Source of the DNA: Candidatus Zixiibacteriota bacterium
Lineage (GTDB): Bacteria; Zixibacteria; MSB-5A5; UM-FILTER-46-8
Length of the DNA stretch: 64,000 bases
Assembly: GCA_014730345.1 (NCBI GenBank)
Contig: WJIJ01000051.1
Location: forward strand, 3,592 to 67,591
Reading direction: 5' to 3'
The translations under genes were made by a program, and so were the position numbers. The notes beneath the pieces are model-generated. The model made no database searches. It had not been told where the DNA came from and worked only from the letters and a program-made list of their open reading frames with translations. Below are positions 12,333-28,605 of the stretch, in pieces. Position 1 is the first letter of the stretch. Every line of letters begins with the position of its first letter.

Positions 12333-14942
12333 TTAAACCTCAACAAGCTTACCTTCTTTTAATTCCTTGAACTGGTCGATTGGGTCATCTATCCAGCGCA
12401 TCATTTCCAGCCCAAATTGATCAACCATATCGCGGTGATAGGGCATTATCCGGATGGAATAACCGAACATCCCGCTTTCCATGCAGGGTAAAGCGCCTTC
12501 GTAGAGCGAGGTCCCGTCATTGAGGGTTTTTACGTAATTAAGTACCTGGGTGGTGCTGTCGGAGATATTGAAGTCCACATCCTGCGGACCATAATATACC
12601 TGCACCATCAGGTCGTCAGGATTGAGGTTTCCGAGATTAATCCTGGCTATAACTTTCAGGTCATCTCCCACATTCGCTTCAGACTGTTCGATTTCGGCGC
12701 CTATTATCCTGACATCCCTCCAGTTTTCACGGATATAACTTTTCCATTTAACAACACCTTTTGCACAACCGAAGTTATCCGCTGATAGCTTTTTCCAGGT
12801 TGTGTATGCCCTGGTATAGAACTTTTCGGTATACTCCTGCACCATACGATTGGTGCTGAAGATCGGGCACAGGTTCTTCATGGAGTTTTTGACCATTCTT
12901 ATCCAGCCCCGCGGCGCTTTGTCGCTTCCACGGTCATAAAAAAGCGGAGCAACCTCGTTTTCGAGGGCATCGTAAATACTCGTGCTTTCGATCTCATCCC
13001 GGTAAGAAGGATCGTCATAGTTTTCACCGCTTCCGATAGACCATCCACGATCAAAACGGTAGCCCTCATCCCACCAACCATCGAGAACACTAAGGTTTAG
13101 CCCTCCATTGGGTAGAACCTTCATCCCACTGGTTCCGCTGGCTTCCTGGGGCCTTTGGGGATTATTTAACCAGAGATCTACACCCTGCACAAGGTAACGG
13201 GCGACATTTATATCGTAATTCTCGAGGAACACGAAACTGTGGCGTACATCTTCCTGCCGTGCGAAATGTATTAATCTCTTGATTAGTTCTTTGCCTTCGT
13301 TATCACGGGGATGTGCTTTTCCGGCGAAAATAAATTGAATCGGCCTTTCCGGGTTATTCATCATCCGTTTAAGCCGTATGGTGTCCCTTAAAATAAGAGT
13401 TGCTCTTTTGTATGTAGCGAACCTCCGGGCGAAACCGACTGTCAGGGCGTCGGGATTTAGTGTTTCCCGGGCATGAGAGATTTCCCTCGGGCTCGCTCCG
13501 CGTCTCCTTAATTGATCCGCCAGTTTTTTTCTGGCAAATGCCACCAGGCGCGCCCTGCGTCTCTCGTGGATTCTCCACAATTCAATATCGGGTATCTTTT
13601 CAACCCGTTCCCAGATAGAATGGTCGGTTGGTTTTTTGATCCAGTTGGGCCCGAGATAGCGGGTCAATAGTTCCGACATCTCCGAGGATACCCATGAACG
13701 GGTATGTATCCCGTTGGTAATGTGGTCAATAGGGATTTCTTCCTCGGGAACCCTCGGATATATCGCCTGCCACATCTTGCGGGAAACCTCACCGTGCAGT
13801 TTTGATACACCGTTGGCAAATGCCGTGGTTCTCAAAGCGAAGACAGCCATGTTGAAAGGTTCATACTGGTCATTCGGATTTCTGCGGCCCAACGCTAAGA
13901 ACTTATCGAGGGAAATCCCGCAGGACTCGAGATGATGCCCCAGGTATTTCTGGATTAAAGACGGATGAAATATATCAATACCGGCAGGCACGGGCGTATG
14001 TGTAGTAAATATCGTACCGCCCCTAACTACGTCTATAGCTTCCTCGGTTGTCAATTTATCGGTTACCATCCGGTGGCGGATGCGCTCAAAAGCCATGAAT
14101 GCCGCGTGACCCTCGTTCATATGGCAAACATGGGTATGGATATCCAGCTTCCGCAGGGCCTCCATTCCGCCTATCCCCAGGATTATTTCCTGTTGAATTC
14201 GGGTTTCCTCGTCGCCGCCGTAAAGCTGATATGTTATCCTCCGGTCCCGGGTATCATTTTCGGGAGTATTTGTATCCAGCAAATAGAGAGGAATTCGTCC
14301 CACTTCCGCTTTCCATATCCGGCAGTATACATTGCGTCCCGGGAATTGAACCGAGATTAAAACCGGTTTGCCCAGTTCATCCAATTCCGGACGAATTGGC
14401 AGATTATAAAAATCATTATCCGGATACGTTTCCTGTTGCCAGCCGTCGGAATTCAGGTATTGCTGGAAATAACCTCTTTGGTATAATAATCCCACACCCA
14501 CCAACGGGATACCGAGTTCGCTGGCTGATTTTAAGTGGTCGCCGGCCAAAATGCCCAAACCGCCTGAATAATTCGGAAGGCACTCGTTCAACCCGAATTC
14601 CATTGAGAAGTAAGCGATTTTTGGCGTATCAAACTGGGCGTATTTATTTTCAAACCAGGTTTTACTCATCAGGTGCTCATTCAACTCGATATATATCCGG
14701 TCGAGTTGGGCCATAAACCCTTCGTCTTGAGCTAACTGCATTAACTTCTCCTGGCTGACCAATCCCAGCATTTTCACCGGATTATGGTAAGTGGAATTCC
14801 ATAGATCCCGGTCAATCCGCCGGAAAAGTTCTACAGCTTCGGGATTCCATGTCCAGAAGAAATTATAAGCGATTTCATCAAGCTTCTGAAGCTCATCGGG
14901 AAGAGTTGCTTTAATTCTGAAATTTCCAAAAGATCGCGGCAT
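12333..14942 (-). CDS. glgP: Alpha-1,4-glucan (glycogen/maltodextrin) phosphorylase, GlgP/DUF3417-type
   Basis: PLP-site motif EASGTSGMKVLPNGGLNLSVLDGWWDE. Length 869 aa. GT35-family architecture. Confidence 0.92.
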   Translation of the reverse strand: MPRSFGNFRIKATLPDELQKLDEIAYNFFWTWNPEAVELFRRIDRDLWNSTYHNPVKMLGLVSQEKLMQLAQDEGFMAQLDRIYIELNEHLMSKTWFENKYAQFDTPKIAYFSMEFGLNECLPNYSGGLGILAGDHLKSASELGIPLVGVGLLYQRGYFQQYLNSDGWQQETYPDNDFYNLPIRPELDELGKPVLISVQFPGRNVYCRIWKAEVGRIPLYLLDTNTPENDTRDRRITYQLYGGDEETRIQQEIILGIGGMEALRKLDIHTHVCHMNEGHAAFMAFERIRHRMVTDKLTTEEAIDVVRGGTIFTTHTPVPAGIDIFHPSLIQKYLGHHLESCGISLDKFLALGRRNPNDQYEPFNMAVFALRTTAFANGVSKLHGEVSRKMWQAIYPRVPEEEIPIDHITNGIHTRSWVSSEMSELLTRYLGPNWIKKPTDHSIWERVEKIPDIELWRIHERRRARLVAFARKKLADQLRRRGASPREISHARETLNPDALTVGFARRFATYKRATLILRDTIRLKRMMNNPERPIQFIFAGKAHPRDNEGKELIKRLIHFARQEDVRHSFVFLENYDINVARYLVQGVDLWLNNPQRPQEASGTSGMKVLPNGGLNLSVLDGWWDEGYRFDRGWSIGSGENYDDPSYRDEIESTSIYDALENEVAPLFYDRGSDKAPRGWIRMVKNSMKNLCPIFSTNRMVQEYTEKFYTRAYTTWKKLSADNFGCAKGVVKWKSYIRENWRDVRIIGAEIEQSEANVGDDLKVIARINLGNLNPDDLMVQVYYGPQDVDFNISDSTTQVLNYVKTLNDGTSLYEGALPCMESGMFGYSIRIMPYHRDMVDQFGLEMMRWIDDPIDQFKELKEGKLVEV

Positions 14943-15269
14943 CGTCTACTCCCATGTTGTTTTGTAAATTTTGTATAATATAAAAACCGGCAAAATGTTC
15001 CTTTATAAAGACCCACAATAATAATATTGCTATCAAGAGAGATTAGAAATTATTGCAAAAATGATACCTAAATCCTGCATATATATTTATCGTCATTGTT
15101 TTGGTTTGATTAATGTAATTGGACCCGCGATAACCTTAATTTTTTATCATTATTCATCTGGATATTATAATGTTTACCGAAATAGTAGTTATTATAATTA
15201 TGTTAATTTCATATTAGTATTGTCCGCCCCGAAAAAAACCACAATATTAATAAAACATTAGAGTCTTTC

Positions 15270-15297
15270 TTGACATTTTGGGATAAAAGATTATAAT
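15270..15297 (+). promoter_or_regulatory. Near-consensus sigma70 promoter for gdhA
   Basis: TTGACA at 15270-15275, a 16-nt spacer, TATAAT at 15292-15297. About 95 nt upstream of the gdhA ATG, inside a 450-nt AT-rich divergent intergenic region. Confidence 0.6.
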
Positions 15298-15390
15298 GGC
15301 TCATCGACATTAATATTGTGAAAATGTTCACTTTTGGGCATTTTCTTACCATGATTTGAATTGATACAGGATAGCTGAAAGGATATAGAA

Positions 15391-16677
15391 ATGGAAAAGC
15401 AAGGATTTAACCCATTTGCCATGGCGCAGGCGCAATTCGATAATATTGCCGATGAATTGGGTTTGGACGCCGCCACTAAGGATCTGCTTCGTAATCCTAT
15501 GAGGGAATATCATTTCAATATTCCCATTAGAATGGATGACGGTACGGTTAAAGTATTCAGGGGATTCAGGGTTCAACATAACGATGCGCGTGGTCCCGGA
15601 AAAGGCGGAATCCGTTTCCATCCGCAGGAAACTATCGACACCGTGAGAGCTTTATCCATGTGGATGACATGGAAATGCGCGGTTGTTGATATCCCTCTCG
15701 GTGGCAGTAAAGGCGGAGTTGTTTGCGACCCTCACCACCTGAGTATGCGCGAGCAGGAACAGATATGCCGGGTGTGGGTACGGCAATTAGCCAAAAATGT
15801 CGGTCCGATCTCAGATGTTCCCGCCCCGGATGTTATGACCAGCGCCCAGCATATGCTCTGGATGCTTGATGAATTCGAGGCTATCCACGGTAGCAAACTC
15901 CCCGGTTTTATCACTGGAAAGCCGGTTGGCATGGGAGGTTCCCTGGGCAGGACCGAGGCAACCGGTTACGGGGTCATTTTTACCGTTCGGGAAGCCCTCA
16001 AATCATTGGGCATTAGACCCGAGGACACAACCGCCAGCGTACAGGGCTTCGGCAATGTCGCCCAATACGCAATACGCTTGTATGAACAATTGGGCGGAAA
16101 GGTTAAATGCGTATCCTGCTGGGATCAGGAAGACCAGGCTTCATACAGCTTTAAAAAGGACGATGGCATTGAGTTCGACAAACTCCTGGAGATAACCGAC
16201 CGGTTCGGAGGAATAGACAAAGGCAAAGCTAAAGAACTCGGTTACGAAATACTGGGCGCAGACGCCTGGTTGGAACAGGATGTGGATATTTTAATTCCGG
16301 CCGCTCTTGAAAACCAGATAAATGCCGGTAACGTGGACAAGATCCACCGGAATGTAAAAATCGTTGCCGAAGGCGCTAACGGGCCTACCACCCCTGACGC
16401 GGATAAGGTGTTGGAAGAGCGTAAAATATTCGTTATCCCGGATTTCCTGGCAAATGCCGGGGGCGTTACCTGCAGTTATTTTGAGCAGGTTCAGTGCAAT
16501 ATGAACTATTTCTGGGAAAAAGATGAAGTACTGGGTAAATTGGACCTTAAAATGACTTCGGCCTTTAATTCGGTAATGGAGTTATCCCTTAAGCGCAAAC
16601 TGTTTATGCGCGACGCGGCTTATCATATCGCTATCGGCAGGGTAGCCCAGGCATGCCATGACCGCGGCTGGGTATAA
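15391..16677 (+). CDS. gdhA: Glutamate dehydrogenase
   Basis: Glu/Leu/Phe/Val dehydrogenase motifs: catalytic-Lys region GGSKGG, PDVMTSAQHMLWMLDEF, and the NAD(P)-binding segment GFGNVAQYA. Length 428 aa. Confidence 0.93.
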   Translation: MEKQGFNPFAMAQAQFDNIADELGLDAATKDLLRNPMREYHFNIPIRMDDGTVKVFRGFRVQHNDARGPGKGGIRFHPQETIDTVRALSMWMTWKCAVVDIPLGGSKGGVVCDPHHLSMREQEQICRVWVRQLAKNVGPISDVPAPDVMTSAQHMLWMLDEFEAIHGSKLPGFITGKPVGMGGSLGRTEATGYGVIFTVREALKSLGIRPEDTTASVQGFGNVAQYAIRLYEQLGGKVKCVSCWDQEDQASYSFKKDDGIEFDKLLEITDRFGGIDKGKAKELGYEILGADAWLEQDVDILIPAALENQINAGNVDKIHRNVKIVAEGANGPTTPDADKVLEERKIFVIPDFLANAGGVTCSYFEQVQCNMNYFWEKDEVLGKLDLKMTSAFNSVMELSLKRKLFMRDAAYHIAIGRVAQACHDRGWV

Positions 16678-16692
16678 AGAATTAAACAGCGT

Positions 16693-16722
16693 AAGGCGAT
16701 ACCCGGGTATCGCCTTCTTTTT
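16693..16722 (+). terminator. Rho-independent terminator after gdhA
   Basis: Perfect palindrome AAGGCGATACCCGGGTATCGCCTT immediately followed by CTTTTT. Confidence 0.75.
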
Positions 16723-16773
16723 GCACGCGCCTTAGCGTCGGGGAGCCCGAATGAAAGTGATGGGGATTATAAA

Positions 16774-18522
16774 ATGACATCTAATCCGTACGAGCACAAA
16801 CTTACCCGTTTTGACCGCCAATTTTTCACCGGCAAGGAGAAATTTACATTTATCGGAGGGGGTTCGATTGGCGGTAAAGCACAGGGATTGGCGCGGATGA
16901 AGGAGATAATCGAGGATAACGCCAATTTCCTCGAATTCAAGAATATCGAAGTCCGTATTCCCACCCTTACCGTTATTGCCACCGATTTCTTCGATATGTT
17001 CATGAAGCAGAACGACCTTTATGAAATCGCCCTTTCTGATGCGCGCAATGACCTGAAATCACACGCTTTCCAGAAAGCGGACCTGCCTGTTCAACTTGTT
17101 GGGGATCTGCGGGCGCTGATCGAACAGGTCCATACTCCATTGGCAATCCGTTCCTCGAGCATGCTCGAGGATGCCATGTTCGAGCCATTCGCCAGCGTTT
17201 ATGCTACCAAGATGATTCCTAATAACCAGTTCAGCCCCGACCAGCGTTTCAGGAAACTGGTGGAAGCGGTCAAGTTTATCTGGGCATCAACATTCTTTAC
17301 CGATGCCGCCAATTATATTAAAAGCACGAAACATAAAACCACCGATGAGAAAATGGCGGTTGTTATTCAGGAGGTTGTCGGCTCGCGTTTTAATGACCGC
17401 TTTTATCCCCATATCTGCGGCGTCGCCCGTTCTCATAATTTCTACCCTGCCGGAGGGGCCAAAGCGGAGGATGGTATCGTTGATTTAGCTTTGGGGCTGG
17501 GCAAGATAATCGTTGATGACGGTGTCGCCTGGCCCTTTTCCCCGTCCCGCCCTAAGGCAGATCCGCCATTTAAATCGATGAACGATATGCTTAAAAATAC
17601 CCAAACCGAATTCTGGGGAATCAACATGGGTAAACCTCCCGAGTTCAATCCGATCAAGGAAACCGAATACATGAACAGGTACAACCTTTCTGATGCCGAG
17701 TATGACGGTTCATTGAAACACATCGCCTCAACCCTGCGTTCAGATGATGGCAGGCTGGTTATCGGCACAGGGTTTAAAGGCCCGCGGGTACTTAATTTCG
17801 CGCCAATTCTGCAGTTAAATGATATACCGCTTGCGCCCCTGGTGAAAAAACTTTTAAAAATATGCGAGGAAGAACTTGGCAGTTTGGTGGAGATTGAATT
17901 TGCCGTTACTCTCGATAAAAAACACGGCGCGCCCGCTAATTTCGGATTTCTGCAGGTTAGGCCTATGGTTGTTTCTCACGGCGGAGTGGAGGTTACCGAG
18001 AATGAACTCAATGGGAATAATCTGGTTTTATCTTCCGATAAAGTTTTGGGAAATGAAGTAATTGATGATATCAGGGATATAGTATATGTGAAGCGGGATA
18101 GTTTTAAAGCATCGGAGACCTATTCCATGGTTCCTCAATTAGAGGAGATAAACAACAATATTGTAACCAAAAACAGGAGATTCGTGTTGATCGGTTTCGG
18201 CAGGTGGGGTACTACTGACCCGGTAGCGGGGATACCGGTTAATTTCGGTCAGGTTAGCGGGGCTAAGGTAATGGTCGAAGCGACATTGCCGGATATGAAT
18301 TTCCAGTTGTCGCAGGGTTCGCATTTCTTCCATAATGTAACCAGTTTTAAAGTATGTTATTTTTCTGTTTACCATTGGGGCCAGTATAATATAAATTGGA
18401 GTTGGTTGGATAATCAGAAGGCGGTTAAGGAAAGCAAACATATACGCCATATTTCGCTTGAGAAACCGCTGTTAATCAAAGTTGACGGCAAAACCGGCCG
18501 TGGGGTGATTAAATATGAGTGA
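16774..18522 (+). CDS. PEP/pyruvate-binding-domain (PPDK_N-type ATP-grasp) protein with an uncharacterised C-terminal module. No phosphohistidine swivel domain is present.
   Basis: PPDK_N hallmarks: GGKAQGLARM, IRSSSMLEDAMFEPFASVY and the domain end FGFLQVRP. The C-terminal ~200 aa carry the motifs GFGRWGTTDP and QGSHFFHN, which are shared with the downstream paralogue. Confidence 0.7.
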   Translation: MTSNPYEHKLTRFDRQFFTGKEKFTFIGGGSIGGKAQGLARMKEIIEDNANFLEFKNIEVRIPTLTVIATDFFDMFMKQNDLYEIALSDARNDLKSHAFQKADLPVQLVGDLRALIEQVHTPLAIRSSSMLEDAMFEPFASVYATKMIPNNQFSPDQRFRKLVEAVKFIWASTFFTDAANYIKSTKHKTTDEKMAVVIQEVVGSRFNDRFYPHICGVARSHNFYPAGGAKAEDGIVDLALGLGKIIVDDGVAWPFSPSRPKADPPFKSMNDMLKNTQTEFWGINMGKPPEFNPIKETEYMNRYNLSDAEYDGSLKHIASTLRSDDGRLVIGTGFKGPRVLNFAPILQLNDIPLAPLVKKLLKICEEELGSLVEIEFAVTLDKKHGAPANFGFLQVRPMVVSHGGVEVTENELNGNNLVLSSDKVLGNEVIDDIRDIVYVKRDSFKASETYSMVPQLEEINNNIVTKNRRFVLIGFGRWGTTDPVAGIPVNFGQVSGAKVMVEATLPDMNFQLSQGSHFFHNVTSFKVCYFSVYHWGQYNINWSWLDNQKAVKESKHIRHISLEKPLLIKVDGKTGRGVIKYE

Positions 18523-21500
18523 TGGAGCGCAAAGCCCTGATAACCTTTTATGGTATCTACAGGAAAGAGCTAAAGAGCTCGGATGTCTTTATAGAATCGA
18601 GGAAGTCCTCAACCAGCCGGATTCGGATTTAGAGGATGTATGCAAAATCGTAATTGAAGCCATTCCCCCCGGATGGCAGTATCCCGATGTGTGCGTGGCG
18701 AAAATAGAAGTAGGTGACGATGTCTATCAATCTGAAAATTTTCGGGAAACCGAGTGGGTTTTGAGCTCTCATATCGAAGTACAGGATAAGGTGGTTGGGA
18801 TTATAAGTGTTTATTACACAAAAGAGATGCCCAAAGCCGATATAGGACCATACCTGAATGAAGAGAAAAAGCTCCTGGGAACAATCGCTGACAGGGTTGG
18901 CCATTTCATTATGTACAATAATATGAAACAGGTTTTCCAGGATTACGAAGACGCGCGGGATGTTCTGACTACCCATCAGGAAAAGGAGTGGAGGGTCGCA
19001 CTGAACCTTCTTAAACAGACCGATAAAACACTGTATGTCAATATCTGCCGCCGGATGCTAAACCATCTGTGCTGGAGCGGAATAGAAGGATCCGATGACC
19101 TTCTAAAAAGCGCTTCTTCGATCAGTACCGACCAGGCCGAAAGACTTCCTACTGAGGATAACCGTCCCCACCAGAAAAGCCCGCTGGCGTTTTCGGATAA
19201 ACTCTGCGAGGATATATTTGCTATCGCTGATAAACATATCTGGGACGAGCAGATCCTCGGTTTTGTTCGCAAATGGATACAGGAAGACCGGCTTAGTTTT
19301 CTAACCAAGGTTTTAAGCCAGAACCTCCCCATGACCGAAGCCGCGGATGCCGTCCGTCGCTATATCCACCTTACCTCGGATGAAGTAGATCTGCCCCGGA
19401 ACACTAAAAGGGGTATTCAGATCGCGTTGATACGGCGTATGCTGTCCGACCAGATGTCCTATATTAATGTAGCGAATGATTTTATCGAAATAAGGGATTT
19501 CCAGGAGATTCTCGATAAATTAATATATCCTCCGGACAGCCATGGCCGTTTAGGCGGTAAAGCCGCGGGATTGTTTTTGGCGAAACAGGTCATAAAAAGG
19601 GGAGACGACAGTTTTCCGGAGTTGCAGGATATAAAAGTACCTAAAACCTGGTATATTGCTTCAGATGGGTTACTTGATTTTCTGCAGTATAACAACCTCA
19701 GCGAAGTGGTTGAGCAGAAATACAAAGATATCAACCAGGTCCGTGTTGAATATCCGCATATCGTGCAGATGTTCAAGAATTGCCGTTTCCCGCCGGAGAT
19801 TGTCCAGGGGCTTTCGGTTGCCCTCGATGATTTCAAAGATCAGCCTTTGATTGTGCGTAGTTCGAGCCTCCTCGAGGATAGAGCGGGTTCGGCGTTTTCA
19901 GGTAAGTATAAAAGCCTGTTTATCGCTAACCGGGGTACGAAACAGGAACGGCTTGAAACATTGTTGGATGCCATAGCCGAAGTGTACGCTTCTATTTTCG
20001 GTCCGGATCCCATCGAATACCGCGCTGAAAGAGGATTGCTGGATTTCATCGAGGAAATGGGTATCATAATCCAGGAAGTCGTCGGCACCCAGATCGGGAA
20101 TTATTTCATACCCTCCTATGCAGGCGTGGCATTCAGCAGAAATGAATTTCGCTGGTCGCCGCGCATCAAGCGTGAAGATGGCCTGCTCAGGCTCGTGCCG
20201 GGTTTGGGAACCCGGGCCGTGGACAGGCTCGGCGACGATTATCCGATTCTGATTGCGCCGGGGCAGACTAATCTACGGGTAAATGTTACACTTGAGGAAA
20301 TGGTCCGTTATTCTCCAAAGCAGGTTGATGTAATTAATCTTAAGAACAACACTTTCGAAACGGTTACGATTGATATACTTTTAAGGAGCGCCGGCGATGA
20401 ACTGCCGGGAATAGAAAAAATGGTTTCCATTTACGATGGCCACCTGATGCGCAAACCGATGGGATTTAACATAGATTTTGAAAAAGACGACCTGGTAGTG
20501 ACTTTCGATGGGCTTATATCAGATAATAAATTCGTAAAGCAGATACAGGGGATGCTGAAGCTTCTGGAGAAGGAGTTGAAAACGCCGGTGGATATCGAAT
20601 TCGCTTCCGATGGCAGGGACTTGTACATTTTACAATGCCGTCCGCAGAGTTCCACCGATACCGGCGCGCCTGCCAATATTCCCAAGAATATACCGGAAAA
20701 CCGGATTTTATTTACCGCCAACCGTTATATTTCTAATGGCAAGACTCCCGATATTACCCATGTTGTTTATGTCGATCCCCAAAAGTATGATGAGATCGAG
20801 GACCGCCAGCAGCTCCTCGCGGTGGGAAGGGCTGTGGGCAAACTGAACAAAGTACTGCCCAAACGGAAATTTATCCTCATGGGACCTGGCAGGTGGGGGA
20901 GCAGGGGGGACATTAAGCTGGGTGTCAATGTTACCTATTCGGAAATAAACAATACAGCCGTGTTAATAGAGGTTGCCCGCCAGAAGGGGAACTATGTCCC
21001 CGACCTTTCTTTCGGAACCCATTTTTTCCAGGATCTTGTAGAGGCCGAAATACGCTATTTGCCGTTGTACCCCGATGACGAGGGTATACTGTTCAACGAA
21101 GATTTCCTGTTGAACTCCGAGAATATCCTCTCGGAAGTCGCGCCCGAATGCGCGGACCTGGCTGACGTGATCCGCCTCATCGACGTTTCAAAATCAACCG
21201 GCGGGAATATCTTGAGGGTGCTCATGAATGCGGAATTGGAGCAGGCGATAGGAATACTGGACAAACCGTTGGTTGACCAGAAATCTCCATTGCCTGCCAA
21301 GGATTCCGAGGAGATCAAATCCAATGGAAACTACTGGGCATGGAGGTTAAGAATGGCTGAATACATTGCCCGGCACCTCGATCCCAATCGTTTTGGCGTG
21401 AAAGGCTTCTATGTAATCGGAAGCACAAAGAATGCCACCGCCGGACCGGCCAGCGATATCGACCTTCTGATACATTTCTCGGGTACTGATGAGCAGAGGG

Positions 21501-21709
21501 AAGATATGATGACCTGGCTGGAGGGCTGGAGCTTGAGCCTCGATGAGATGAATTACCTGGAAACAGGCTATCGAACCGGGGGACTGCTGGATATTCACAT
21601 CGTTACCGATGAAGATATAGAAAAAAAGAGCAGTTACGCGGTGAAGATCGGCGCGGTAACCGATGCCGCCAGGCCGCTTCCCATGAAAACAGCTATTGAA
21701 GGAAATTAA
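18515..21709 (+). CDS. Multidomain protein: GAF-like N-terminus, PPDK_N-type ATP-grasp, the shared C-terminal module, and a Pol-beta-type minimal nucleotidyltransferase domain
   Basis: GAF-like region (VCKIVIEAIPPGWQYPDVCVAKIEV...VVGIISVYY). PPDK_N motifs (GGKAAGLFLAKQ, VRSSSLLEDRAGSAFSGKY, LYILQCRPQ). Shared motifs (GPGRWGSRGD, FGTHFFQDL). C-terminal NTase signature (GSTKNATAGPASDIDLLIHF). Overlaps the upstream gene by 8 nt. Confidence 0.7.
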   Translation: MSDGAQSPDNLLWYLQERAKELGCLYRIEEVLNQPDSDLEDVCKIVIEAIPPGWQYPDVCVAKIEVGDDVYQSENFRETEWVLSSHIEVQDKVVGIISVYYTKEMPKADIGPYLNEEKKLLGTIADRVGHFIMYNNMKQVFQDYEDARDVLTTHQEKEWRVALNLLKQTDKTLYVNICRRMLNHLCWSGIEGSDDLLKSASSISTDQAERLPTEDNRPHQKSPLAFSDKLCEDIFAIADKHIWDEQILGFVRKWIQEDRLSFLTKVLSQNLPMTEAADAVRRYIHLTSDEVDLPRNTKRGIQIALIRRMLSDQMSYINVANDFIEIRDFQEILDKLIYPPDSHGRLGGKAAGLFLAKQVIKRGDDSFPELQDIKVPKTWYIASDGLLDFLQYNNLSEVVEQKYKDINQVRVEYPHIVQMFKNCRFPPEIVQGLSVALDDFKDQPLIVRSSSLLEDRAGSAFSGKYKSLFIANRGTKQERLETLLDAIAEVYASIFGPDPIEYRAERGLLDFIEEMGIIIQEVVGTQIGNYFIPSYAGVAFSRNEFRWSPRIKREDGLLRLVPGLGTRAVDRLGDDYPILIAPGQTNLRVNVTLEEMVRYSPKQVDVINLKNNTFETVTIDILLRSAGDELPGIEKMVSIYDGHLMRKPMGFNIDFEKDDLVVTFDGLISDNKFVKQIQGMLKLLEKELKTPVDIEFASDGRDLYILQCRPQSSTDTGAPANIPKNIPENRILFTANRYISNGKTPDITHVVYVDPQKYDEIEDRQQLLAVGRAVGKLNKVLPKRKFILMGPGRWGSRGDIKLGVNVTYSEINNTAVLIEVARQKGNYVPDLSFGTHFFQDLVEAEIRYLPLYPDDEGILFNEDFLLNSENILSEVAPECADLADVIRLIDVSKSTGGNILRVLMNAELEQAIGILDKPLVDQKSPLPAKDSEEIKSNGNYWAWRLRMAEYIARHLDPNRFGVKGFYVIGSTKNATAGPASDIDLLIHFSGTDEQREDMMTWLEGWSLSLDEMNYLETGYRTGGLLDIHIVTDEDIEKKSSYAVKIGAVTDAARPLPMKTAIEGN

Positions 21710-21716
21710 TTTCTTC

Positions 21717-22583
21717 TCAGATTAGCTCCCTTCGGGCTTCATTCAAATTTTCAGTATCAAATACAACCAGAGCGAGTTCAGGGCCGTCATGGGCCGCTGT
21801 AAAACAATATGTTTCGCCTATCCGGTCTTTCCATGAACCGGTCAGGCTGGCTGATTCGTGTATATGGCCATGAAGCGTAACCAGAGGTTGACGTTTTTCG
21901 ATAAAACGCCTGATGGCAATACTCCCCACATTGGGGTCGAGGGGAATATGGTCTATCATCTTGCCCTCGAGTGCCGCGTAATCGAGCTTGGTTTTATGGG
22001 GCGGGGAATGAAATAGAAATATGGCATTGCTTAAATCAGATTTGCCGGTGAGTTCGTCCAGGTCCTCTTTTATGGTGGCGAATTTAATCCTGTTGTCGCG
22101 GACTTCCATCGAATGAGAACCATCTTCCGGGGAAACGCAACCGGGATCTACATAACGGGAAACATCGTAACGCTCCCAATCCTTGAGCATGAAAGGGGTT
22201 GGGGGAACGAACGAATAACCATAGACGCTGTGCCTTCCAAACTCGAACCTCCGGTTATGGGCATAATGCCAAAGCCCCACATTGCTTTCGATTTGCTTTA
22301 TCAGGGGTTCCTCATACCTGCCATCATCATTGCCCAGTATGATAAAAAAATTCGGGTAATCGTTGCCTATTGCTTCACGTATGTTCAACAGTTCAGGCAC
22401 GAGATAATCCTCGAGGAAATCATCGTGTTGTTCATTTCCCGGCGTGGAAAAGGCGATTGCCGAGGGCAGGATATCTCCTCCCATAAAGACGGCGGCCGGT
22501 TTTTCATCTACTATTGCTGAAAATAGTTTTTCGTATCTATCGGTTAGTCCGTGCAGGTCTGAGACAAAGAAACATTTTGGCAT
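21717..22583 (-). CDS. Calcineurin-like metallophosphoesterase
   Basis: Motif I (FFVSDLHG), GGDIL, GNDD and GHIHE metal-binding motifs. The likely start is the ATG at ~22583 (MPKCFFVSDLHG) rather than the listed 22628. Confidence 0.8.
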   Translation of the reverse strand: MPKCFFVSDLHGLTDRYEKLFSAIVDEKPAAVFMGGDILPSAIAFSTPGNEQHDDFLEDYLVPELLNIREAIGNDYPNFFIILGNDDGRYEEPLIKQIESNVGLWHYAHNRRFEFGRHSVYGYSFVPPTPFMLKDWERYDVSRYVDPGCVSPEDGSHSMEVRDNRIKFATIKEDLDELTGKSDLSNAIFLFHSPPHKTKLDYAALEGKMIDHIPLDPNVGSIAIRRFIEKRQPLVTLHGHIHESASLTGSWKDRIGETYCFTAAHDGPELALVVFDTENLNEARRELI

Positions 22584-22693
22584 AATAAAACCTTCAGCTG
22601 AGTTCAATCCGCAAGGATAGCAAATCATTCACACCAAATCAACAGGATTAGGAATATTATTGCGCTATTTTAACATGTATTATAACTTAAAGT

Positions 22694-23476
22694 ATGGCTT
22701 ATTTCTATAAAAGCAAGCTGGAAAAGGATTTGGCAAGTAAGGTGGTTAAGGCTTCCGATGAGTTTAACCTCATCGAAGACGGGGATAAAATCGCGGTAGC
22801 TTTCTCCGGGGGGAAGGACAGCTATACGCTTTTGAGGATGCTGTCGCTCATCAAAATCAGGGGCAACAGGCGTTTTGATTTAACCGCGGTTAATATTGAC
22901 GCCGGATTCGGCGGCTATGATACTGATTCAATAAAAGAGTATTTTTATGAGAACAAAATTCCCCATGAAATGATCTTCTATCCCATAAAGAAGATCTCCG
23001 GTAAACTCCTGAAGAAAAATGAAAAGCTGTGCAGTTTCTGTTCAAGGATAAAGCGGGGGGTGATATATGATTATTGTCTGAAGGAGGGATTCAACAAGGT
23101 GGCATTGGGACATAATGCCGATGATGTTTTAGAAACCCTGCTTATAAACCAGATGTTTGCCGGGGCATTGCGGTCAATGCCTCCAAAACTCGCCGCCGAT
23201 GGAAAGCCTATTACGGTAATACGCCCCCTGTATTATATTTTCGAAGATGAAACAAAACGATATGCCGACGAGATGAATTTTCCGCTCGTAGAAAGCGAGT
23301 GCCCCGAAAGCGAAAAGGATGAGTTGAAACGAAATATAATTAAAAAGCTTTTAAATGAACTGGAAAAAGACAACGACCGGGTGAAAAATTGCTTGCTGGC
23401 ATCGGCGGGAAATATACACGCGAGATTCCTGGCTGATCCCCGTTTCAATAAATATTTGGATAACGGTAAGAGATGA
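22694..23476 (+). CDS. ttcA: PP-loop ATP pyrophosphatase of the TtcA family (tRNA 2-thiocytidine synthesis)
   Basis: PP-loop (AFSGGKDS), CxxC motif (CSFCSRIKRG) and a conserved GHNADD segment. Confidence 0.75.
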   Translation: MAYFYKSKLEKDLASKVVKASDEFNLIEDGDKIAVAFSGGKDSYTLLRMLSLIKIRGNRRFDLTAVNIDAGFGGYDTDSIKEYFYENKIPHEMIFYPIKKISGKLLKKNEKLCSFCSRIKRGVIYDYCLKEGFNKVALGHNADDVLETLLINQMFAGALRSMPPKLAADGKPITVIRPLYYIFEDETKRYADEMNFPLVESECPESEKDELKRNIIKKLLNELEKDNDRVKNCLLASAGNIHARFLADPRFNKYLDNGKR

Positions 23477-23934
23477 AATTTTTCTGTGATGATAATCTTG
23501 GCAAGCTGGCGAAACTTCTACGTGCGGCTGGTTATGATACATTGTTTTACAGGACCATCCGCGATGGTGAGCTGATATCCCGTGCGCTTAAGGATAAGAG
23601 GTTTATCATTACCCGCGACCGGGGGCTGATTGGCAGGGGTGCGCCGGAGGATGCTGTATTGTTAATCGAAGGTGATAACCCAGATGAGCAATTCGAGTAT
23701 GTTATTCTGCAAATGAACCTGCATCCCGAATATGAACGCTGGTTAACCAGGTGTATTGAGTGTAACAATGTCCTGTGCGTGGTTAACAGGAAAGACTATG
23801 TAGAGCAGATTCCCCCTTATGTTTACAAAACGCATGATGAATTCTACAGGTGTCCCGGTTGCGAAAGGCTTTACTGGAAAGGGACTCACCACAAGCGGCT
23901 GACCGAACGCCTCGGTGAGAGATTTAGAAAATAG
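23473..23934 (+). CDS. Mut7-C RNase-domain protein (PF01927-like) with a C-terminal zinc ribbon
   Basis: N-terminus (MKFFCDDNLGKLAKLLRAAGYDT) is characteristic of the Mut7-C domain. C-terminal CxxC...CPGC zinc ribbon. 4-nt overlap with ttcA. Confidence 0.75.
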   Translation: MKFFCDDNLGKLAKLLRAAGYDTLFYRTIRDGELISRALKDKRFIITRDRGLIGRGAPEDAVLLIEGDNPDEQFEYVILQMNLHPEYERWLTRCIECNNVLCVVNRKDYVEQIPPYVYKTHDEFYRCPGCERLYWKGTHHKRLTERLGERFRK

Positions 23935-25636
23935 GATACCCTTTTTCCTGGTCTATATCCCGGATTCGCTCGATGTTGTCATCGATTTTGCGGGGTATTA
24001 CACAATGCCTTTTTAAGAGTGTGGCAACTGTCTGAACCGCGCCTTCTTTCTCGGCGGAGATAACCTCGTTAGCGCCCAATTTTTTCAATCCTTCGATATC
24101 CATGATATAATTCGCCCGGGTGATTATGTGGACCTCTTTCGATAATTCGCGGGCTGACAAAATCGCTTGTTCCACGGCCGCCGTATCATTGATTACGATT
24201 ACGAACTCATTTGCCTCATGCAATCCTACCGATTCGAGAACCTCCACGCTGGTTATATCACCGAACATCGCCGGCTCGCCTTTGGAGAGGGCGCGATTAA
24301 CATTATCTATATTCAAATCTACAATTATATATTTAATCCCGCATTTCCGAAGAGATTTAGACAGCTCTTCCCCCGCGAACCCATAACCGCCTATGATGAC
24401 ATGTTCTTTGAGGGTTTTTACCTCCTCGTCAAATTTTTCATCCCCGTCGAACGCCAGCCTTTTGCCAATAAGGTTGATCCTCCCGGCTCCGGCGGCGAGG
24501 GAGGGACCGGAGGCGAGCAGTATGGGAGTTACTATCATGGTTAAAATCGTAACAGTGAGGAAATTGCCTAATAAAGTTTCAGAAATCAATCCCTGCTGGA
24601 ATGCCGACCTCGAAAGAACGAATGAAAATTCTCCGACCTGGGCCAGGGCAACACCCGCCAAGAGCGAAGCCCTCAACGGCATACGCATTATGATACCCGC
24701 GAGTATCACAATCACCGGTTTGAGTATGAGTATCGCCGCGAATAATGCGATTATAAGCAGAACATTTTCAGAGATGGCGCTTATATTCATCAGCATACCT
24801 ATTGACACGAAGAATATACTGGTGAAGACCTCCCGGAATGGAATAACATCGGATAAAGCTTGATGCCGGAATTTGCTACCCGCTACCACGATTCCCGCCA
24901 AAAACGCCCCAAGGGCCAGTGAAACGCCGGCGATTGAAATAAGCAGGGCCGTTCCGAGACTCATTATAATAACCGTAAGCACGAATAACTGCCGCTGGCG
25001 TGTTTTGGCTATCAGGTTCAGCAATGACGGAGCAACGATGCGTGCGGCTATGATGATTCCCGTTACAATCGCCGCCGATTTCAACAGGCTTATGATTAAG
25101 TCGGATGTAGACGCGCCTTTGCCGGCGAGGACCGGTATAAGGAGCATCATGGGAACCACGCATAAATCCTGAAAAACGAGGATGCCCAGGGTTATCTTGC
25201 CATGAGGAGCGTCAACTTCACCTCGCTCCTGAAGGCCTCGAAGCACTATGGCGGTACTTGATATCGCGAACATGCAGCCGAGGATAAAAGCTTCGTTGGG
25301 AGGGAATTTAAAATAGGCGGCAATTAAATAAGCCAATCCGGCTGTCAGGCCAACCTGGAGAGAGCCACCGATTAGAATAGCACGCCATAGTTTTTTTAAC
25401 CTGTCCAGCGAAAGCTCCAGCCCTATCCCGAAGAGCAGAAGGGCTACCCCAATTTCCGCAAGTACCTCGACCTGGTGTACATCGCCAATTATGCCCAGAC
25501 CCTTAGGACCGACTATCATACCGGCAACGATAAAGCCGGCGATAGGGGGGACCTTCAGCCGGTAAAGTAGGGCCACAACCACGACCCCGACGGTTAGTAT
25601 GATCAGGGTATCATATAAATATACTATTATATCCAT
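23924..25636 (-). CDS. Monovalent cation:proton antiporter (CPA2/Kef-type) with C-terminal TrkA-N/TrkA-C regulatory domains
   Basis: About 12 TM helices in the N-terminal 380 aa. Rossmann motif (IIGGYGFAGE) followed by a TrkA-C-like tail. Confidence 0.85.
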   Translation of the reverse strand: MDIIVYLYDTLIILTVGVVVVALLYRLKVPPIAGFIVAGMIVGPKGLGIIGDVHQVEVLAEIGVALLLFGIGLELSLDRLKKLWRAILIGGSLQVGLTAGLAYLIAAYFKFPPNEAFILGCMFAISSTAIVLRGLQERGEVDAPHGKITLGILVFQDLCVVPMMLLIPVLAGKGASTSDLIISLLKSAAIVTGIIIAARIVAPSLLNLIAKTRQRQLFVLTVIIMSLGTALLISIAGVSLALGAFLAGIVVAGSKFRHQALSDVIPFREVFTSIFFVSIGMLMNISAISENVLLIIALFAAILILKPVIVILAGIIMRMPLRASLLAGVALAQVGEFSFVLSRSAFQQGLISETLLGNFLTVTILTMIVTPILLASGPSLAAGAGRINLIGKRLAFDGDEKFDEEVKTLKEHVIIGGYGFAGEELSKSLRKCGIKYIIVDLNIDNVNRALSKGEPAMFGDITSVEVLESVGLHEANEFVIVINDTAAVEQAILSARELSKEVHIITRANYIMDIEGLKKLGANEVISAEKEGAVQTVATLLKRHCVIPRKIDDNIERIRDIDQEKGYPIF

Positions 25637-25722
25637 ATAAATAACGTCTTTAGAGTAAATCCTTTATATACTTACAGGAATCATACTATACATTTCTTGA
25701 TTAATCAACACAGAATTGTGGA

Positions 25723-28605
25723 TTATCGTCCGCCTACAGCCTGCGGTTCGGCTATCTTGCGATTCCTGCCCGCTTTTGGCTTAAGGCCGGGTTCTTTTTT
25801 CAAAAACGCCCCGGTGTAACTTTTATCATTGGCGGCAATATGTTCGGGAGTACCCGAAGCAACGACATACCCGCCTTCATCGCCGCCTTCAGGGCCAAGG
25901 TCGATTATCCAATCTGCGGTTTTGATAACATCGAGATTATGTTCGATAACAACTACCGTATTGCCCCGTGCGACGAGTTTATTGAGAACATTCAGTAACA
26001 TCTTGATATCTTCAAAATGCAATCCTGTTGTAGGCTCATCGAGGATGTATAAAGTGTTCCCGGTGGAAACTTTGGATAACTCTGTGGAGAGTTTTACCCG
26101 CTGTGCCTCGCCTCCGGACAGGGTGGTAGCCTGTTGTCCGAGATGTATATAACCCAATCCAACTTCTTTTAACGTCACCAGCTTACGTTTAACGACCTCA
26201 ATATTCTCAAAAAATTCCAACGCCTCATCAACGGTCATCTCGAGGATATCCGCTATAGATTTACCGCGATATGCGATTTCCAGCGTCTCCCGGTTGTAGC
26301 GTTTGCCCTTGCACGTTTCGCACTGGATGTAGATGTCCGGCAGGAAATGCATCTCGATTTTCTTTATTCCATCGCCCTCACAATCCTCACACCTGCCGCC
26401 CTTTACATTGAAAGAGAAACGTCCCGGACCATACCCCCGCAGTCTCGATTCGGGAAGCTTCGAAAAAATATCCCTGATGGGAGCGAATAATCCCGTGTAA
26501 GTTGCAGGATTGGAGCGCGGCGTTCTGCCGATAGGCGACTGGTCGATGTCTATTACCTTGTCCACATAATCGAGGCCCAGTATTTCATCATGGGGCAGTG
26601 GCTGGATTTTCGAATGATAGATCTTCTGGGCCGCCGCCCGGTAAAGGGTCTCATTGATTAACGTCGATTTGCCCGAGCCTGAAACCCCGGTTACGCAGGT
26701 GAAAAGCCCGATGGGGATATCAACTTCCGCGTTTTTCAGGTTGTTGCCCTTTGCTCCTTTTATTGTAATATGTTTATAATCGGGGACCTTACGATTGTCA
26801 GGTATGGGAATTTTCTTCTTGCCGGTAAGGTATTGACCGGTAATTGATCTTTTAGACTTTTTTATTTTAGCAAGCGTACCGGAAGCCACAAGTTTACCTC
26901 CCAATCTTCCGGCGCCCGGTCCCAGATCGATTATGTAATCGGCCGCTTCTATTGTTTCCTTGTCATGTTCGACGACAATCACTGTATTCCCCAAGTCCCT
27001 CAAAGACTCCAGGGTGTTAAGCAATCTCCGGTTATCCCGTTGATGGAGGCCGATAGAGGGTTCATCGAGAATGTATAAAACCCCGACAAGGCGCGAACCA
27101 ATCTGGGTAGCAAGTCTAATACGCTGTGCTTCGCCGCCCGAAAGGGTTCCGGCTGTTCTGTCGAGGGTTAAATATTCCAATCCTACATCCTGCAGAAATC
27201 CAAGACGCTGGGTAATTTCCTTTGAAACCTGGCTGGCGATTTTGGCATCAGCGGGGTTTAATTTAAGGCTTTTGAAGAATCCATATGCCTTTTTAACGGT
27301 CATGGCGGTAATCTCGGCAATATTAACGCCATGGATTTTAACCGCCAGGGATTCCTTTTTAAGCCTGCCCCCTTTACATTCCAGGCAGGGGCTTATAGAC
27401 ATGAACTGCTTTATCCATTCGCGAATCCCCGATGATTGGGTTTGCCGGTTGCGGCGGGCGAGATGGGGAATTATTCCCTCGAAACGGGACGTATGCTCAT
27501 GGACACCCTTGCCATTGCGGTGTTCCCAGCGGAAATTGAATTCCTCGTCCCCTGAACCGAATAACAGAATATTCCGGACCCGTTCCGGCAGGTCTTCAAA
27601 CGGGGTGGAAAAAGTGAAACCATACTTATTCGCAATAGCGCGCAAAAGATATTCATACCAATTGCCCCGCGGTTCGCCCCAGGGAGCGATTGCTCCCTGG
27701 TTGATACTTTTCGATGGGTCAGGGAGAACCAGTTTGGGGTCGATATCCATCTTGGTCCCCAGCCCGCTGCACTCCGGACAGGCTCCCAAAGGAGAGTTGA
27801 AAGAAAACATCCGCGGTTCCAGTTTTTCGAAAGATATACCGCAATCCGGGCAGGCAAAATGCTCCGAAAACACTATGTCGTTTTTACCGGGGATTTCAAA
27901 GATAACCGAACCTTCGCCTATGTTAAGAGCGGTTTCAACCGAATCAGCCAACCTTGCCTTAACCGAAGGTTTCATTATCAGCCTGTCAACGACTATCTCG
28001 ATATTATGTTTCTTGTTCTTGTCGAGATTAATGGGATTATCAAGCTCCATTATTGTGCCATCGACCCGTACGCGCACGAAACCATCTTTGCGCGCTTTTT
28101 CGAAAATATCCTTGTGTTCACCCTTCCTTCCACGAACTACCGGGGCCAGGATAATCGCCCGGGTCGATTCAGGCAACTCCAGCGCCGATTCTATTATCTG
28201 CTGTGAAGACTGCGGGTGAATCTCTTTACCGCATTTCCAGCAGTGTGGTATACCGATTCGGGCGTATAAAAGCCTTAAATAGTCATAGATTTCGGTTACC
28301 GTCCCAACCGTCGAACGAGGATTTTTAGATGCCGTTCTCTGCTCTATTGAAATTGCCGGAGAAAGGCCGTCTATAAAATCAACATCCGGTTTTTCCATCA
28401 AGCCGAGGAATTGCCGGGCGTATGCCGAAAGCGATTCTACGTATCGACGCTGGCCTTCGGCATAAATGGTGTCAAAAGCCAGAGATGATTTTCCCGAACC
28501 GGATAAACCCGTAACCACTATGAGCTTATTGCGCGGTATATTTATATCTATATTCTTTAAATTATGCTCTCGAGCGCCTTTTATGGTAATTTTATTGGAT
28601 GTCAT
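25723..28605 (-). CDS. uvrA: Excinuclease ABC subunit A
   Basis: Two ABC ATPase modules ([14 protein letters not shown]; [14 protein letters not shown]). Zn-finger cysteines. Two LSGGEAQR signatures. Length 960 aa. Confidence 0.97.

Follow-up and report, generated by a model that had tools for sequence, protein, structure and literature searches.

In a stretch of 64,000 nucleotides from contig WJIJ01000051.1 of a Candidatus Zixiibacteriota bacterium (hereafter the window), two adjacent open reading frames (ORFs), A and B, encode members of an uncharacterised protein family that is genetically tied to the gene for glutamate dehydrogenase (GDH; gene gdh), a tie that extends over at least two domain architectures and as many classes of GDH. 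In our judgement a functional link of some kind between this family and GDH is highly likely. A more specific reading, to which we assign a probability of about 0.4, is that gdh, A, B and an adjacent metallophosphoesterase gene form one cassette, in which A and B together would be an ATP-dependent, signal-gated enzyme that switches GDH covalently. This reading is built on the domain composition of the two proteins, their intact catalytic motifs, the linkage to gdh throughout the family and the occurrence of A-B fusion proteins, all of which are matters of direct observation. GDH is placed where carbon and nitrogen metabolism meet, and its post-translational control in bacteria is far less understood than that of glutamine synthetase. 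Full-text literature searches returned no paper on the A/B family, on the DUF5752 domain of some of its relatives, or on PPDK_N domains together with GDH.

ATP-grasp and accessory domains of A and B

ORF A (16774..18522, + strand) encodes 582 aa and ORF B (18515..21709, + strand) 1064 aa; the two frames overlap by 8 nt, and all the motifs quoted for them in an earlier, sequence-only reading of this DNA are present. That reading had placed a PPDK_N-type ATP-grasp domain in both proteins, and Pfam bears this out (PF01326; A residues 31-402, E = 2.4e-33; B residues 345-728, positions 19547..20698 of the + strand, E = 2.8e-59). The matched regions exceed the Pfam model, of which some 310-325 positions are involved, by about 45-60 residues. 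Both proteins retain the complete ATP-grasp motifs (GGKA, RSSSLLED, DIEFA and LQCRP in B), which are also kept in 120 + 120 homologues. A and residues 344-852 of B can be aligned by BLASTP with 27% identity over 530 residues (E = 2e-37); since the alignment covers both the ATP-grasp domain and the module that follows it, the two proteins are paralogous across both, as had been proposed.

Beyond this domain the resemblance to known dikinases is slight. There is no Pfam match for residues 403-582 of A or for residues 729-905 and 1-340 of B; the same scan finds neither PEP-utilizers nor PEP-utilizers_C (PF02896) in either protein, and the phosphohistidine motif GGxTSH is not present in A or B. 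The NCBIfam models for phosphoenolpyruvate (PEP) synthase, pyruvate phosphate dikinase (PPDK), rifamycin phosphotransferase (Rph) and PigC/RedH return 13-62 bits against cut-offs of 456-1700, and they match the ATP-grasp part only. Among these models A scores highest with PigC (49.2 bits, cut-off 1300) and B with PRK06464 (62.5 bits, cut-off 598); the Rph models give 18.7 and 34.5 bits (cut-off 999). By its ATP-grasp domain the family belongs to the dikinase superfamily, and by the tests for a swivel domain, a TIM barrel and a whole-protein match it does not. A has more than 7000 homologues, the best 120 of which are 59-72% identical to it; relatives of A and B are deposited as 'hypothetical', 'PEP/pyruvate-binding domain-containing', 'pyruvate, phosphate dikinase', 'pyruvate, water dikinase' or 'phosphoenolpyruvate synthase'. 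Because the equivalog cut-offs are missed and PEP-utilizers and PEP-utilizers_C are lacking, the names 'pyruvate, phosphate dikinase' and 'phosphoenolpyruvate synthase' over-reach. With database sources that offer 'hypothetical', merely domain-based or wrong names, the earlier description of the architecture as uncharacterised stands.

B carries additional domains at both ends, in agreement with the sequence-only reading. Its N-terminus (approximately residues 8-152; 18536..18970, + strand) has a GAF fold, of the kind found in sensor domains. This is followed by an all-helical region (approximately residues 158-335; 18986..19519, + strand), recognised from the secondary structure of an AlphaFold2 model and assigned to no family, within which the loop 203-222 is disordered, with a predicted local distance difference test (pLDDT) score below 50. 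At the C-terminus there is a minimal Pol-beta-type nucleotidyltransferase domain (approximately residues 940-1055; 21332..21679, + strand), detected by NTP_transf_2 (PF01909) with 25.3 bits against a cut-off of 21. Its motifs GS-x9-SDIDLL (B969-983; positions 21419-21463) and LLDIH, the third acidic strand (B1024-1028; positions 21584-21598), are kept in homologues, and judging from these motifs the domain is apparently active. Among 150 representative proteins with the shared module it is confined to B-type members.

The shared C-terminal module

The module occupies residues 403-582 of A (17980..18519, + strand; GRWG at 18199-18210, GSHFF at 18316-18330, containing His517) and, by alignment with the module of A, approximately residues 729-905 of B (20699..21229, + strand; GRWG at 20888-20899, GTHFF at 21014-21028, containing His836). 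In a set of 151 diverse sequences, mutually no more than 50% identical, the motifs GxGRWG(S/T)xD and SxG(S/T)HFF, with a glutamate between them, are near-invariant. R477, G479, G486, E502 and G515 (A numbering) occur in all 151 sequences and the histidine of the second motif (His517 of A) in 149; the invariant residues of the B module are identical to those of the A module.

A structure predicted from an alignment of A- and B-type modules is confident (pLDDT 91.6, predicted template modelling score 0.90). The modelled fold, of 180 aa, consists of a beta/beta/alpha part followed by an extra beta-rich half, and the conserved histidine lies at the N-terminus of helix 117-125, immediately following the loop that is modelled with the lowest confidence. 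The phosphorylated histidine of PPDK and Enzyme I has a similar position, at the N-terminus of a helix after a loop. The top structural match of the model is the phosphohistidine carrier domain of PPDK; the top 30 also include a Bacillus stearothermophilus pyruvate kinase chain (C-domain; 5.9), maize PPDK (5.8), rifampin phosphotransferase (5.6) and Enzyme I N-domains (5.3 and 5.0). Many further matches are to thermosome and transferrin-receptor apical domains, LD-carboxypeptidase, aconitase-type domains and cyclases, which we take to represent the class of 'swivelling beta/beta/alpha' folds. A Foldseek search of the same model against the PDB gave no significant match, so that the structural check proposed with the sequence-only reading yielded a confident model and no assignment by Foldseek.

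At the level of sequence the searches were empty: Pfam at E<=10, the module profile against all PDB sequences, and hhalign against Escherichia coli PpsA and PtsI alone. We also aligned the profile of 151 module sequences with a reference alignment of 14 PEP-utiliser swivel domains, made up of 12 diverse plasmid-borne PEP-utiliser genes (ppsA, ppdK, ptsP and rph-like) together with E. coli PpsA and PtsI, and obtained an hhalign probability of 0.5%. A recognisably diverged PEP-utilizers domain is thereby rejected at the sequence level, and the 180 aa of the module are too few for a TIM barrel; the possibility named at the outset as fatal to the idea of a new architecture, that the module is a diverged PEP-utiliser swivel plus PEP-binding domain, is not what was found. 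The claim that both proteins lack the swivel domain and the TIM barrel holds in the sense that neither is recognisable, and has to be amended in that the 'missing' swivel is probably represented by the novel module. In the model, the first ~110 residues probably share the general fold of the PEP-utiliser swivel domain, and the position after the ATP-grasp domain is also the same; from this weak structural similarity the module is likely to be the functional counterpart of the phosphohistidine domain.

Linkage of A and B to gdh and to a metallophosphoesterase

The gene upstream of A in the window (15391..16677, + strand) encodes a 428-aa hexameric-type glutamate dehydrogenase (GDH1), with ELFV_dehydrog_N (E = 4e-53) and ELFV_dehydrog (E = 4e-69) matches in Pfam and the KGG motif with the substrate-carboxylate lysine ('GPGKGGIRFHP'); its closest relatives in the PDB are the GDHs of Thermococcus, Pyrococcus, Thermotoga and Bacillus (E ~1e-119 to 1e-109). 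Downstream, a 303-aa calcineurin-like metallophosphoesterase (21717..22628, - strand) converges on B across a gap of 7 nt, as had been noted. It matches Metallophos (PF00149) with 28.7 bits against a cut-off of 21.5, and its metal-binding motifs are DLHG24, GGD50, GNDD99, H207 and GHIH254. In the third, GNDD, the usual histidine is replaced; this type of motif presumably also occurs in diesterases of the YfcE/MJ0936 type.

To see how far this arrangement is kept we scanned one genome per species and collected 59 loci with homologues of A at 53-72% identity. They come from about eight phyla and include Zixibacteria, Ignavibacteria, Krumholzibacteriota, Aminicenantes/Acidobacteriota, Eisenbacteria, Coatesbacteria and Planctomycetota metagenome-assembled genomes. 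A 428-aa gdh (67-81% identity) lies immediately 5' of A on the same strand in 52 of the 53 loci with enough flanking sequence, at a median distance of 64.5 nt (range 0-263); the 8-nt overlap of A and B recurs in 45 of about 54 loci; and the phosphoesterase (49-65% identity) is convergent on B in 41 of 44 and co-directional in one more. The survey of gene neighbourhoods suggested by the earlier reading, which had considered the pair and the phosphoesterase, thus adds gdh to the conserved unit. No pathway gene other than the members of the cassette is kept with A and B, and the surveyed loci show no glnA, glnB or amtB in the vicinity. The conservation of the overlap and the existence of A-B fusion proteins (P0241, P0242 and P0243) argue that A and B act together.

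A terminator-like hairpin with a T-run (16693..16724, + strand; hairpin at 16693-16716, 10-bp stem, 4-nt loop) stands between gdh and A in the window, and the sequence-only reading had placed the pair after a strong gdhA terminator. The hairpin is there, but gdh belongs to the unit, and since a comparable hairpin occurs in the gdh/A interval of only 3 of 56 related loci, it is a local peculiarity of the window rather than a boundary of the unit. It may lower the expression of A and B relative to gdh by attenuating read-through.

Some variants of the arrangement were also observed. The stop codons of B and the phosphoesterase gene are 0-20 nt apart or overlap in most related loci (L004-L062), and the two transcripts must therefore overlap in antisense. 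The locus with the co-directional phosphoesterase (L004) is also without gdh upstream. Aminicenantes-type genomes have a third, very diverged PPDK_N-like paralogue, 22-24% identical to A and without a Pfam match. A diverged PPDK_N-like paralogue directly follows a second gdh paralogue in two loci (L012, 5326-7965, - strand; L013) and lies beyond the phosphoesterase in four others (L001, 16577-17656, - strand; L011, L054 and L058); in L001 an OmpR-type response regulator is located between the phosphoesterase and this paralogue.

The wider family and its receiver-type branch

A profile search with the module among 1.84 billion representative sequences retrieved 2,252 representative clusters (50% identity) at E<=1e-3. 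In family members PPDK_N is always immediately upstream of the module, and what varies is the N-terminal addition: none (A type), a GAF domain (B type), one to four tandem B-type GAF domains, or two receiver-like domains and DUF5752 ahead of an A-type core in proteins of about 1000 aa (the receiver type). Among the 150 representative module proteins none is fused to GDH or to the phosphoesterase. The tandem GAF domains precede an A-type core in P0300 (1524 aa), P0314 (1557 aa) and P0301 (1145 aa), and P0278 (1484 aa) contains two complete cores in a single protein.

The neighbourhood of the receiver type was sampled in 80 metagenomic loci, and its sole recurrent neighbour is again gdh, with 43 loci as compared to 10 for the next family. 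The gdh in question is of the GdhA/Clostridium type ('GPYKGGLRFHPSV'), with 'GPYKGGLR' and both ELFV domains. At least 28 receiver-type genes have it immediately before them and 5 immediately after them, in each instance in the same orientation, which makes at least 33 adjacent co-directional pairs; in 15 further cases it is elsewhere in the locus, and in total gdh accompanies the receiver type in at least 48 of about 71 informative cases. Four loci (L066, L071, L091 and L105) have both cassettes side by side, with each core type adjoining its own type of gdh. In L091 a single phosphoesterase gene separates the A/B cassette from the receiver-type cassette.

Receiver-type proteins encoded on human-gut contigs are identical to members of clusters that carry the name 'PEP/pyruvate-binding domain-containing protein [Bacteroides]', with thousands of members each, the named species being B. 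fragilis, B. finegoldii, B. salyersiae, B. xylanisolvens and B. ovatus. A 989-aa receiver-type gene is found next to gdh in B. fragilis and relatives; in B. fragilis itself (for example CP037440.1) it is divergent from a peptidase-gdh-peptidase operon. A second gdh, of 444 aa, occurs in addition in a Jilunia-type locus, where it converges on the 3' end of the receiver-type gene from 305 nt away. In the Bacteroides loci L157-L160, L161-L164 and L168-L169 the linked gdh (445 aa) is in an operon with M24 and mostly S9 peptidases, an arrangement consistent with a peptide-catabolic GDH; several of L157-L164 and L168-L169 have a DUF4493/PCMD gene cluster after the receiver-type gene. In three loci of the B. 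cellulosilyticus/intestinalis type (L165-L167) a Metallophos gene converges on the receiver-type gene 33 nt after it. With 24% identity over 86 aa to the phosphoesterase of the window it was rejected as an orthologue. The same loci have a hybrid two-component system gene upstream of the receiver type, and a polyphosphate kinase and a second Metallophos_2 gene nearby.

An older report may bear on these proteins. Its title, as cited in the reference list of PMC4539542, states that trans-acting gene(s) downstream of Bacteroides gdhA affect GDH activity (Baggio & Morrison 1996, J Bacteriol 178:7212). BT1971, considered as the B. thetaiotaomicron family member near gdhA, turned out to be wrong, being a catalase, and a search by name found no B. 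thetaiotaomicron orthologue of the 989-aa protein. GdhA was reportedly inactive in E. coli, although its transcript was retained, except when some 3 kb of DNA from downstream was present. This is the size of the 989-aa gene; the match is a lead and not evidence.

Surroundings of the cassette in the window

A sigma-70-like promoter (TTGACA-16-TATAAT, 12/12; 15270..15297, + strand) was found by a consensus scan about 95 nt 5' of the gdh start codon; it is a pattern match only. An Rfam scan of positions 14900-23000 detected no riboswitch or other RNA family. On the far side of the promoter, and divergent from gdh, there is an alpha-glucan phosphorylase gene with an N-terminal DUF3417 domain (12333-14942, - strand). 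Beyond the phosphoesterase, genes for a TtcA-like PP-loop ATPase (260 aa) and a Mut7-C RNase-domain protein (153 aa) overlap by 4 nt (22694-23934, + strand), and these are followed by genes for a 570-aa membrane protein and then uvrA (23924-28605, - strand), both of housekeeping appearance. The linkage of the alpha-glucan phosphorylase, TtcA-like and Mut7-C neighbours to the cassette is not kept in related loci.

Discussion

From the arrangement described above we infer a reaction scheme that involves histidine phosphorylation, GDH as the acceptor, a ligand for the sensor, and opposing roles of the nucleotidyltransferase and the phosphoesterase. In each protein the PPDK_N ATP-grasp domain would bind ATP and phosphorylate the histidine of the module attached to it (His517 in A, His836 in B) in the manner of dikinases, with the release of AMP and Pi and the beta-phosphate left on the histidine. 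The module would then hand the phosphoryl group to GDH, as Enzyme I does to HPr, and the activity of GDH would be switched. The GAF domain of B would gate the reaction in response to a metabolite such as 2-oxoglutarate or glutamine, a part that in relatives would be played by the receiver-like domain or the tandem GAF domains. The minimal nucleotidyltransferase of B would add a second mark, by AMPylation of either GDH or the A/B complex, and the metallophosphoesterase would take off the phosphoryl or the nucleotidyl mark.

Several points weigh against this scheme. The modification of GDH and its contact with A and B are things that we infer, and we know of no precedent for a bacterial GDH phosphorylated by a dikinase with a histidine relay. 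The assignment of the module to the swivel domains is weak, and its invariant arginine and glutamate could point to a different chemistry. In the window itself a terminator-like hairpin stands between gdh and A. Among the receiver-type genes about 23 of 83 are without gdh within 8 kb, a count that is too high, as it includes some false negatives of the ORF filter, and the B. cellulosilyticus/intestinalis-type receiver gene has no gdh within 7 kb. Finally, the downstream gene of 1996 is only a putative member of the family. With this in mind, a still broader proposition must be called possible, if somewhat doubtful: that proteins with PPDK_N and the module are a widespread new class of ATP-dependent histidine-relay protein phosphotransferases dedicated to GDH, whose GAF or receiver-like sensor domains adjust the activity of GDH by reversible phosphorylation, with AMPylation and removal by the phosphoesterase added in the A/B type, and that the 989-aa Bacteroides protein is the product of the trans-acting gene of 1996.

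The same genes can be interpreted in other ways. A and B could be small-molecule dikinases acting on a metabolite of glutamate/2-oxoglutarate metabolism, which gdh would supply or consume and the phosphoesterase recycle. To our knowledge all characterised PPDK_N enzymes, apart from the relatives of Enzyme I, phosphorylate small molecules or glycans; the partial NCBIfam matches are to PigC, RedH, PpsA and Rph, the 45-60 extra residues of the ATP-grasp region could house an Rph-like substrate pocket, and the linkage to gdh would be compatible with a metabolic partnership as well. We nevertheless consider it unlikely: a kinase and an opposing phosphoesterase acting on a metabolite would amount to a futile cycle, no further pathway gene is kept with the cassette, the core is repeatedly fused to GAF domains, tandem GAF domains and receiver-like domains, and two deeply different classes of GDH each have their own core type, which fits protein-specific recognition better than a common metabolite. 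These features (the fusions to signalling domains, the presence of an opposing hydrolase in a cassette with no other conserved pathway gene, and the pairing of core types with GDH classes) likewise argue for a regulatory rather than a metabolic role. Such a role could be exerted without covalent modification, A, B and their receiver-type relatives being either an ATP-driven activase that activates or assembles GDH or a stoichiometric regulatory subunit set by autophosphorylation and ligand. Thermus has regulatory GDH subunits (GdhA/GdhB), and this proposal draws on exactly the gdh linkage that lies behind a covalent switch; the title of the 1996 report, too, mentions only trans-acting gene(s) affecting GdhA activity. 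The reported inactivity of GdhA in E. coli in the absence of DNA from downstream would suit an activator. A conserved phosphoesterase and nucleotidyltransferase are, however, more easily explained by reversible covalent marks, and GDHs of these classes, the PDB relatives included, are active alone in many organisms, so that we find a non-covalent activase rather improbable.

Equally low is our estimate for A and B as signalling enzymes of nitrogen or carbon status with a target other than GDH, such as a different protein or a nucleotide messenger synthesised by the nucleotidyltransferase, gdh being merely co-regulated. The GAF sensor and nucleotidyltransferase of B, and the receiver-type genes that have no gdh nearby, are in its favour; yet in both architectures no neighbour other than gdh recurs, glnA, glnB and amtB being absent nearby, and the adjacency of gdh across phyla and gdh classes, in 52 of 53 A/B loci, is stronger than usual for co-regulation. 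Two further explanations are extremely improbable. The database names of the homologues and the PPDK_N domain itself would make A and B ordinary PEP synthases or pyruvate phosphate dikinases, an assignment refuted by the missing pyruvate/PEP-binding domain: PEP-utilizers and PEP-utilizers_C are absent, the NCBIfam scores remain at 13-62 bits against 456-1700, hhalign finds no match and the fold of the module is not a TIM barrel. The nucleotidyltransferase and the phosphoesterase might instead belong to a toxin-antitoxin or anti-phage defence system, as would be suggested by weak PADLOC matches (nucleotidyltransferase to PDC-S09, E = 7e-6; phosphoesterase to PDC-S10, E = 1e-5) and a weak match to MntA (NCBIfam NF047752, 15.6 bits, cut-off 60). 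These matches are at the level of domains only, there is no HEPN gene in the cassette, and in many phyla the cassette is tied to a housekeeping gdh and not to defence islands; we have rejected this explanation on context.

A and B can be compared with several known systems. PpsA, PPDK, rifampin phosphotransferase, glucan water dikinase and PigC/RedH have in common with A and B the PPDK_N ATP-grasp domain with its catalytic Lys/Arg/Glu/Gln-Arg motifs. In contrast to the PEP-utilising dikinases, A and B have no recognisable PEP-utilizers mobile domain, no PEP/pyruvate TIM barrel and no identified substrate domain of the Rph or carbohydrate-binding type, and what distinguishes their module is an invariant GxGRWG...E motif together with an additional beta-rich half. 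Enzyme I-Ntr (PtsP) of the nitrogen phosphotransferase system uses PEP and not ATP, has the canonical PEP-utiliser domains and TIM barrel and no ATP-grasp domain, and acts on NPr, which is not a metabolic enzyme. In the other route of ammonium assimilation GlnE (glutamine synthetase adenylyltransferase) and GlnD (PII uridylyltransferase), which have the nucleotidyltransferase fold, reversibly modify the machinery in response to glutamine and 2-oxoglutarate. B resembles them in logic only, with its Pol-beta-type nucleotidyltransferase and a possible removing enzyme encoded next door: Pfam and NCBIfam detect no GlnE or GlnD family domains in A or B, the domain of B is of the minimal MNT/KNT type, removal would fall to a separate metallophosphoesterase instead of a second nucleotidyltransferase or an HD domain, and the target here is presumed.

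AceK controls the branch-point enzyme isocitrate dehydrogenase by reversible phosphorylation and is encoded in aceBAK, at lower expression than the metabolic genes, an arrangement paralleled by gdh, hairpin and A/B in the window; the folds are unrelated, there is no sequence relationship, and AceK is a single bifunctional protein that phosphorylates serine directly from ATP. MntA of type VII toxin-antitoxin systems AMPylates a protein partner with the same minimal GS...DxD nucleotidyltransferase domain as that of B, which differs in scoring 15.6 bits against the MntA cut-off of 60, in having no HEPN partner, in its fusion to a 900-aa enzyme and in its tie to gdh.

The misleading names 'pyruvate, phosphate dikinase' and 'phosphoenolpyruvate synthase', which have been given to thousands of sequences, can now be corrected. 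If GDH is indeed switched covalently by A and B, the 1996 report on genes downstream of Bacteroides gdhA could be put to a direct test in an organism amenable to genetics, the novel module would gain a function, and the histidine-relay chemistry of dikinases would have a new, protein-directed use. A new regulatory system would then be defined for a central enzyme.

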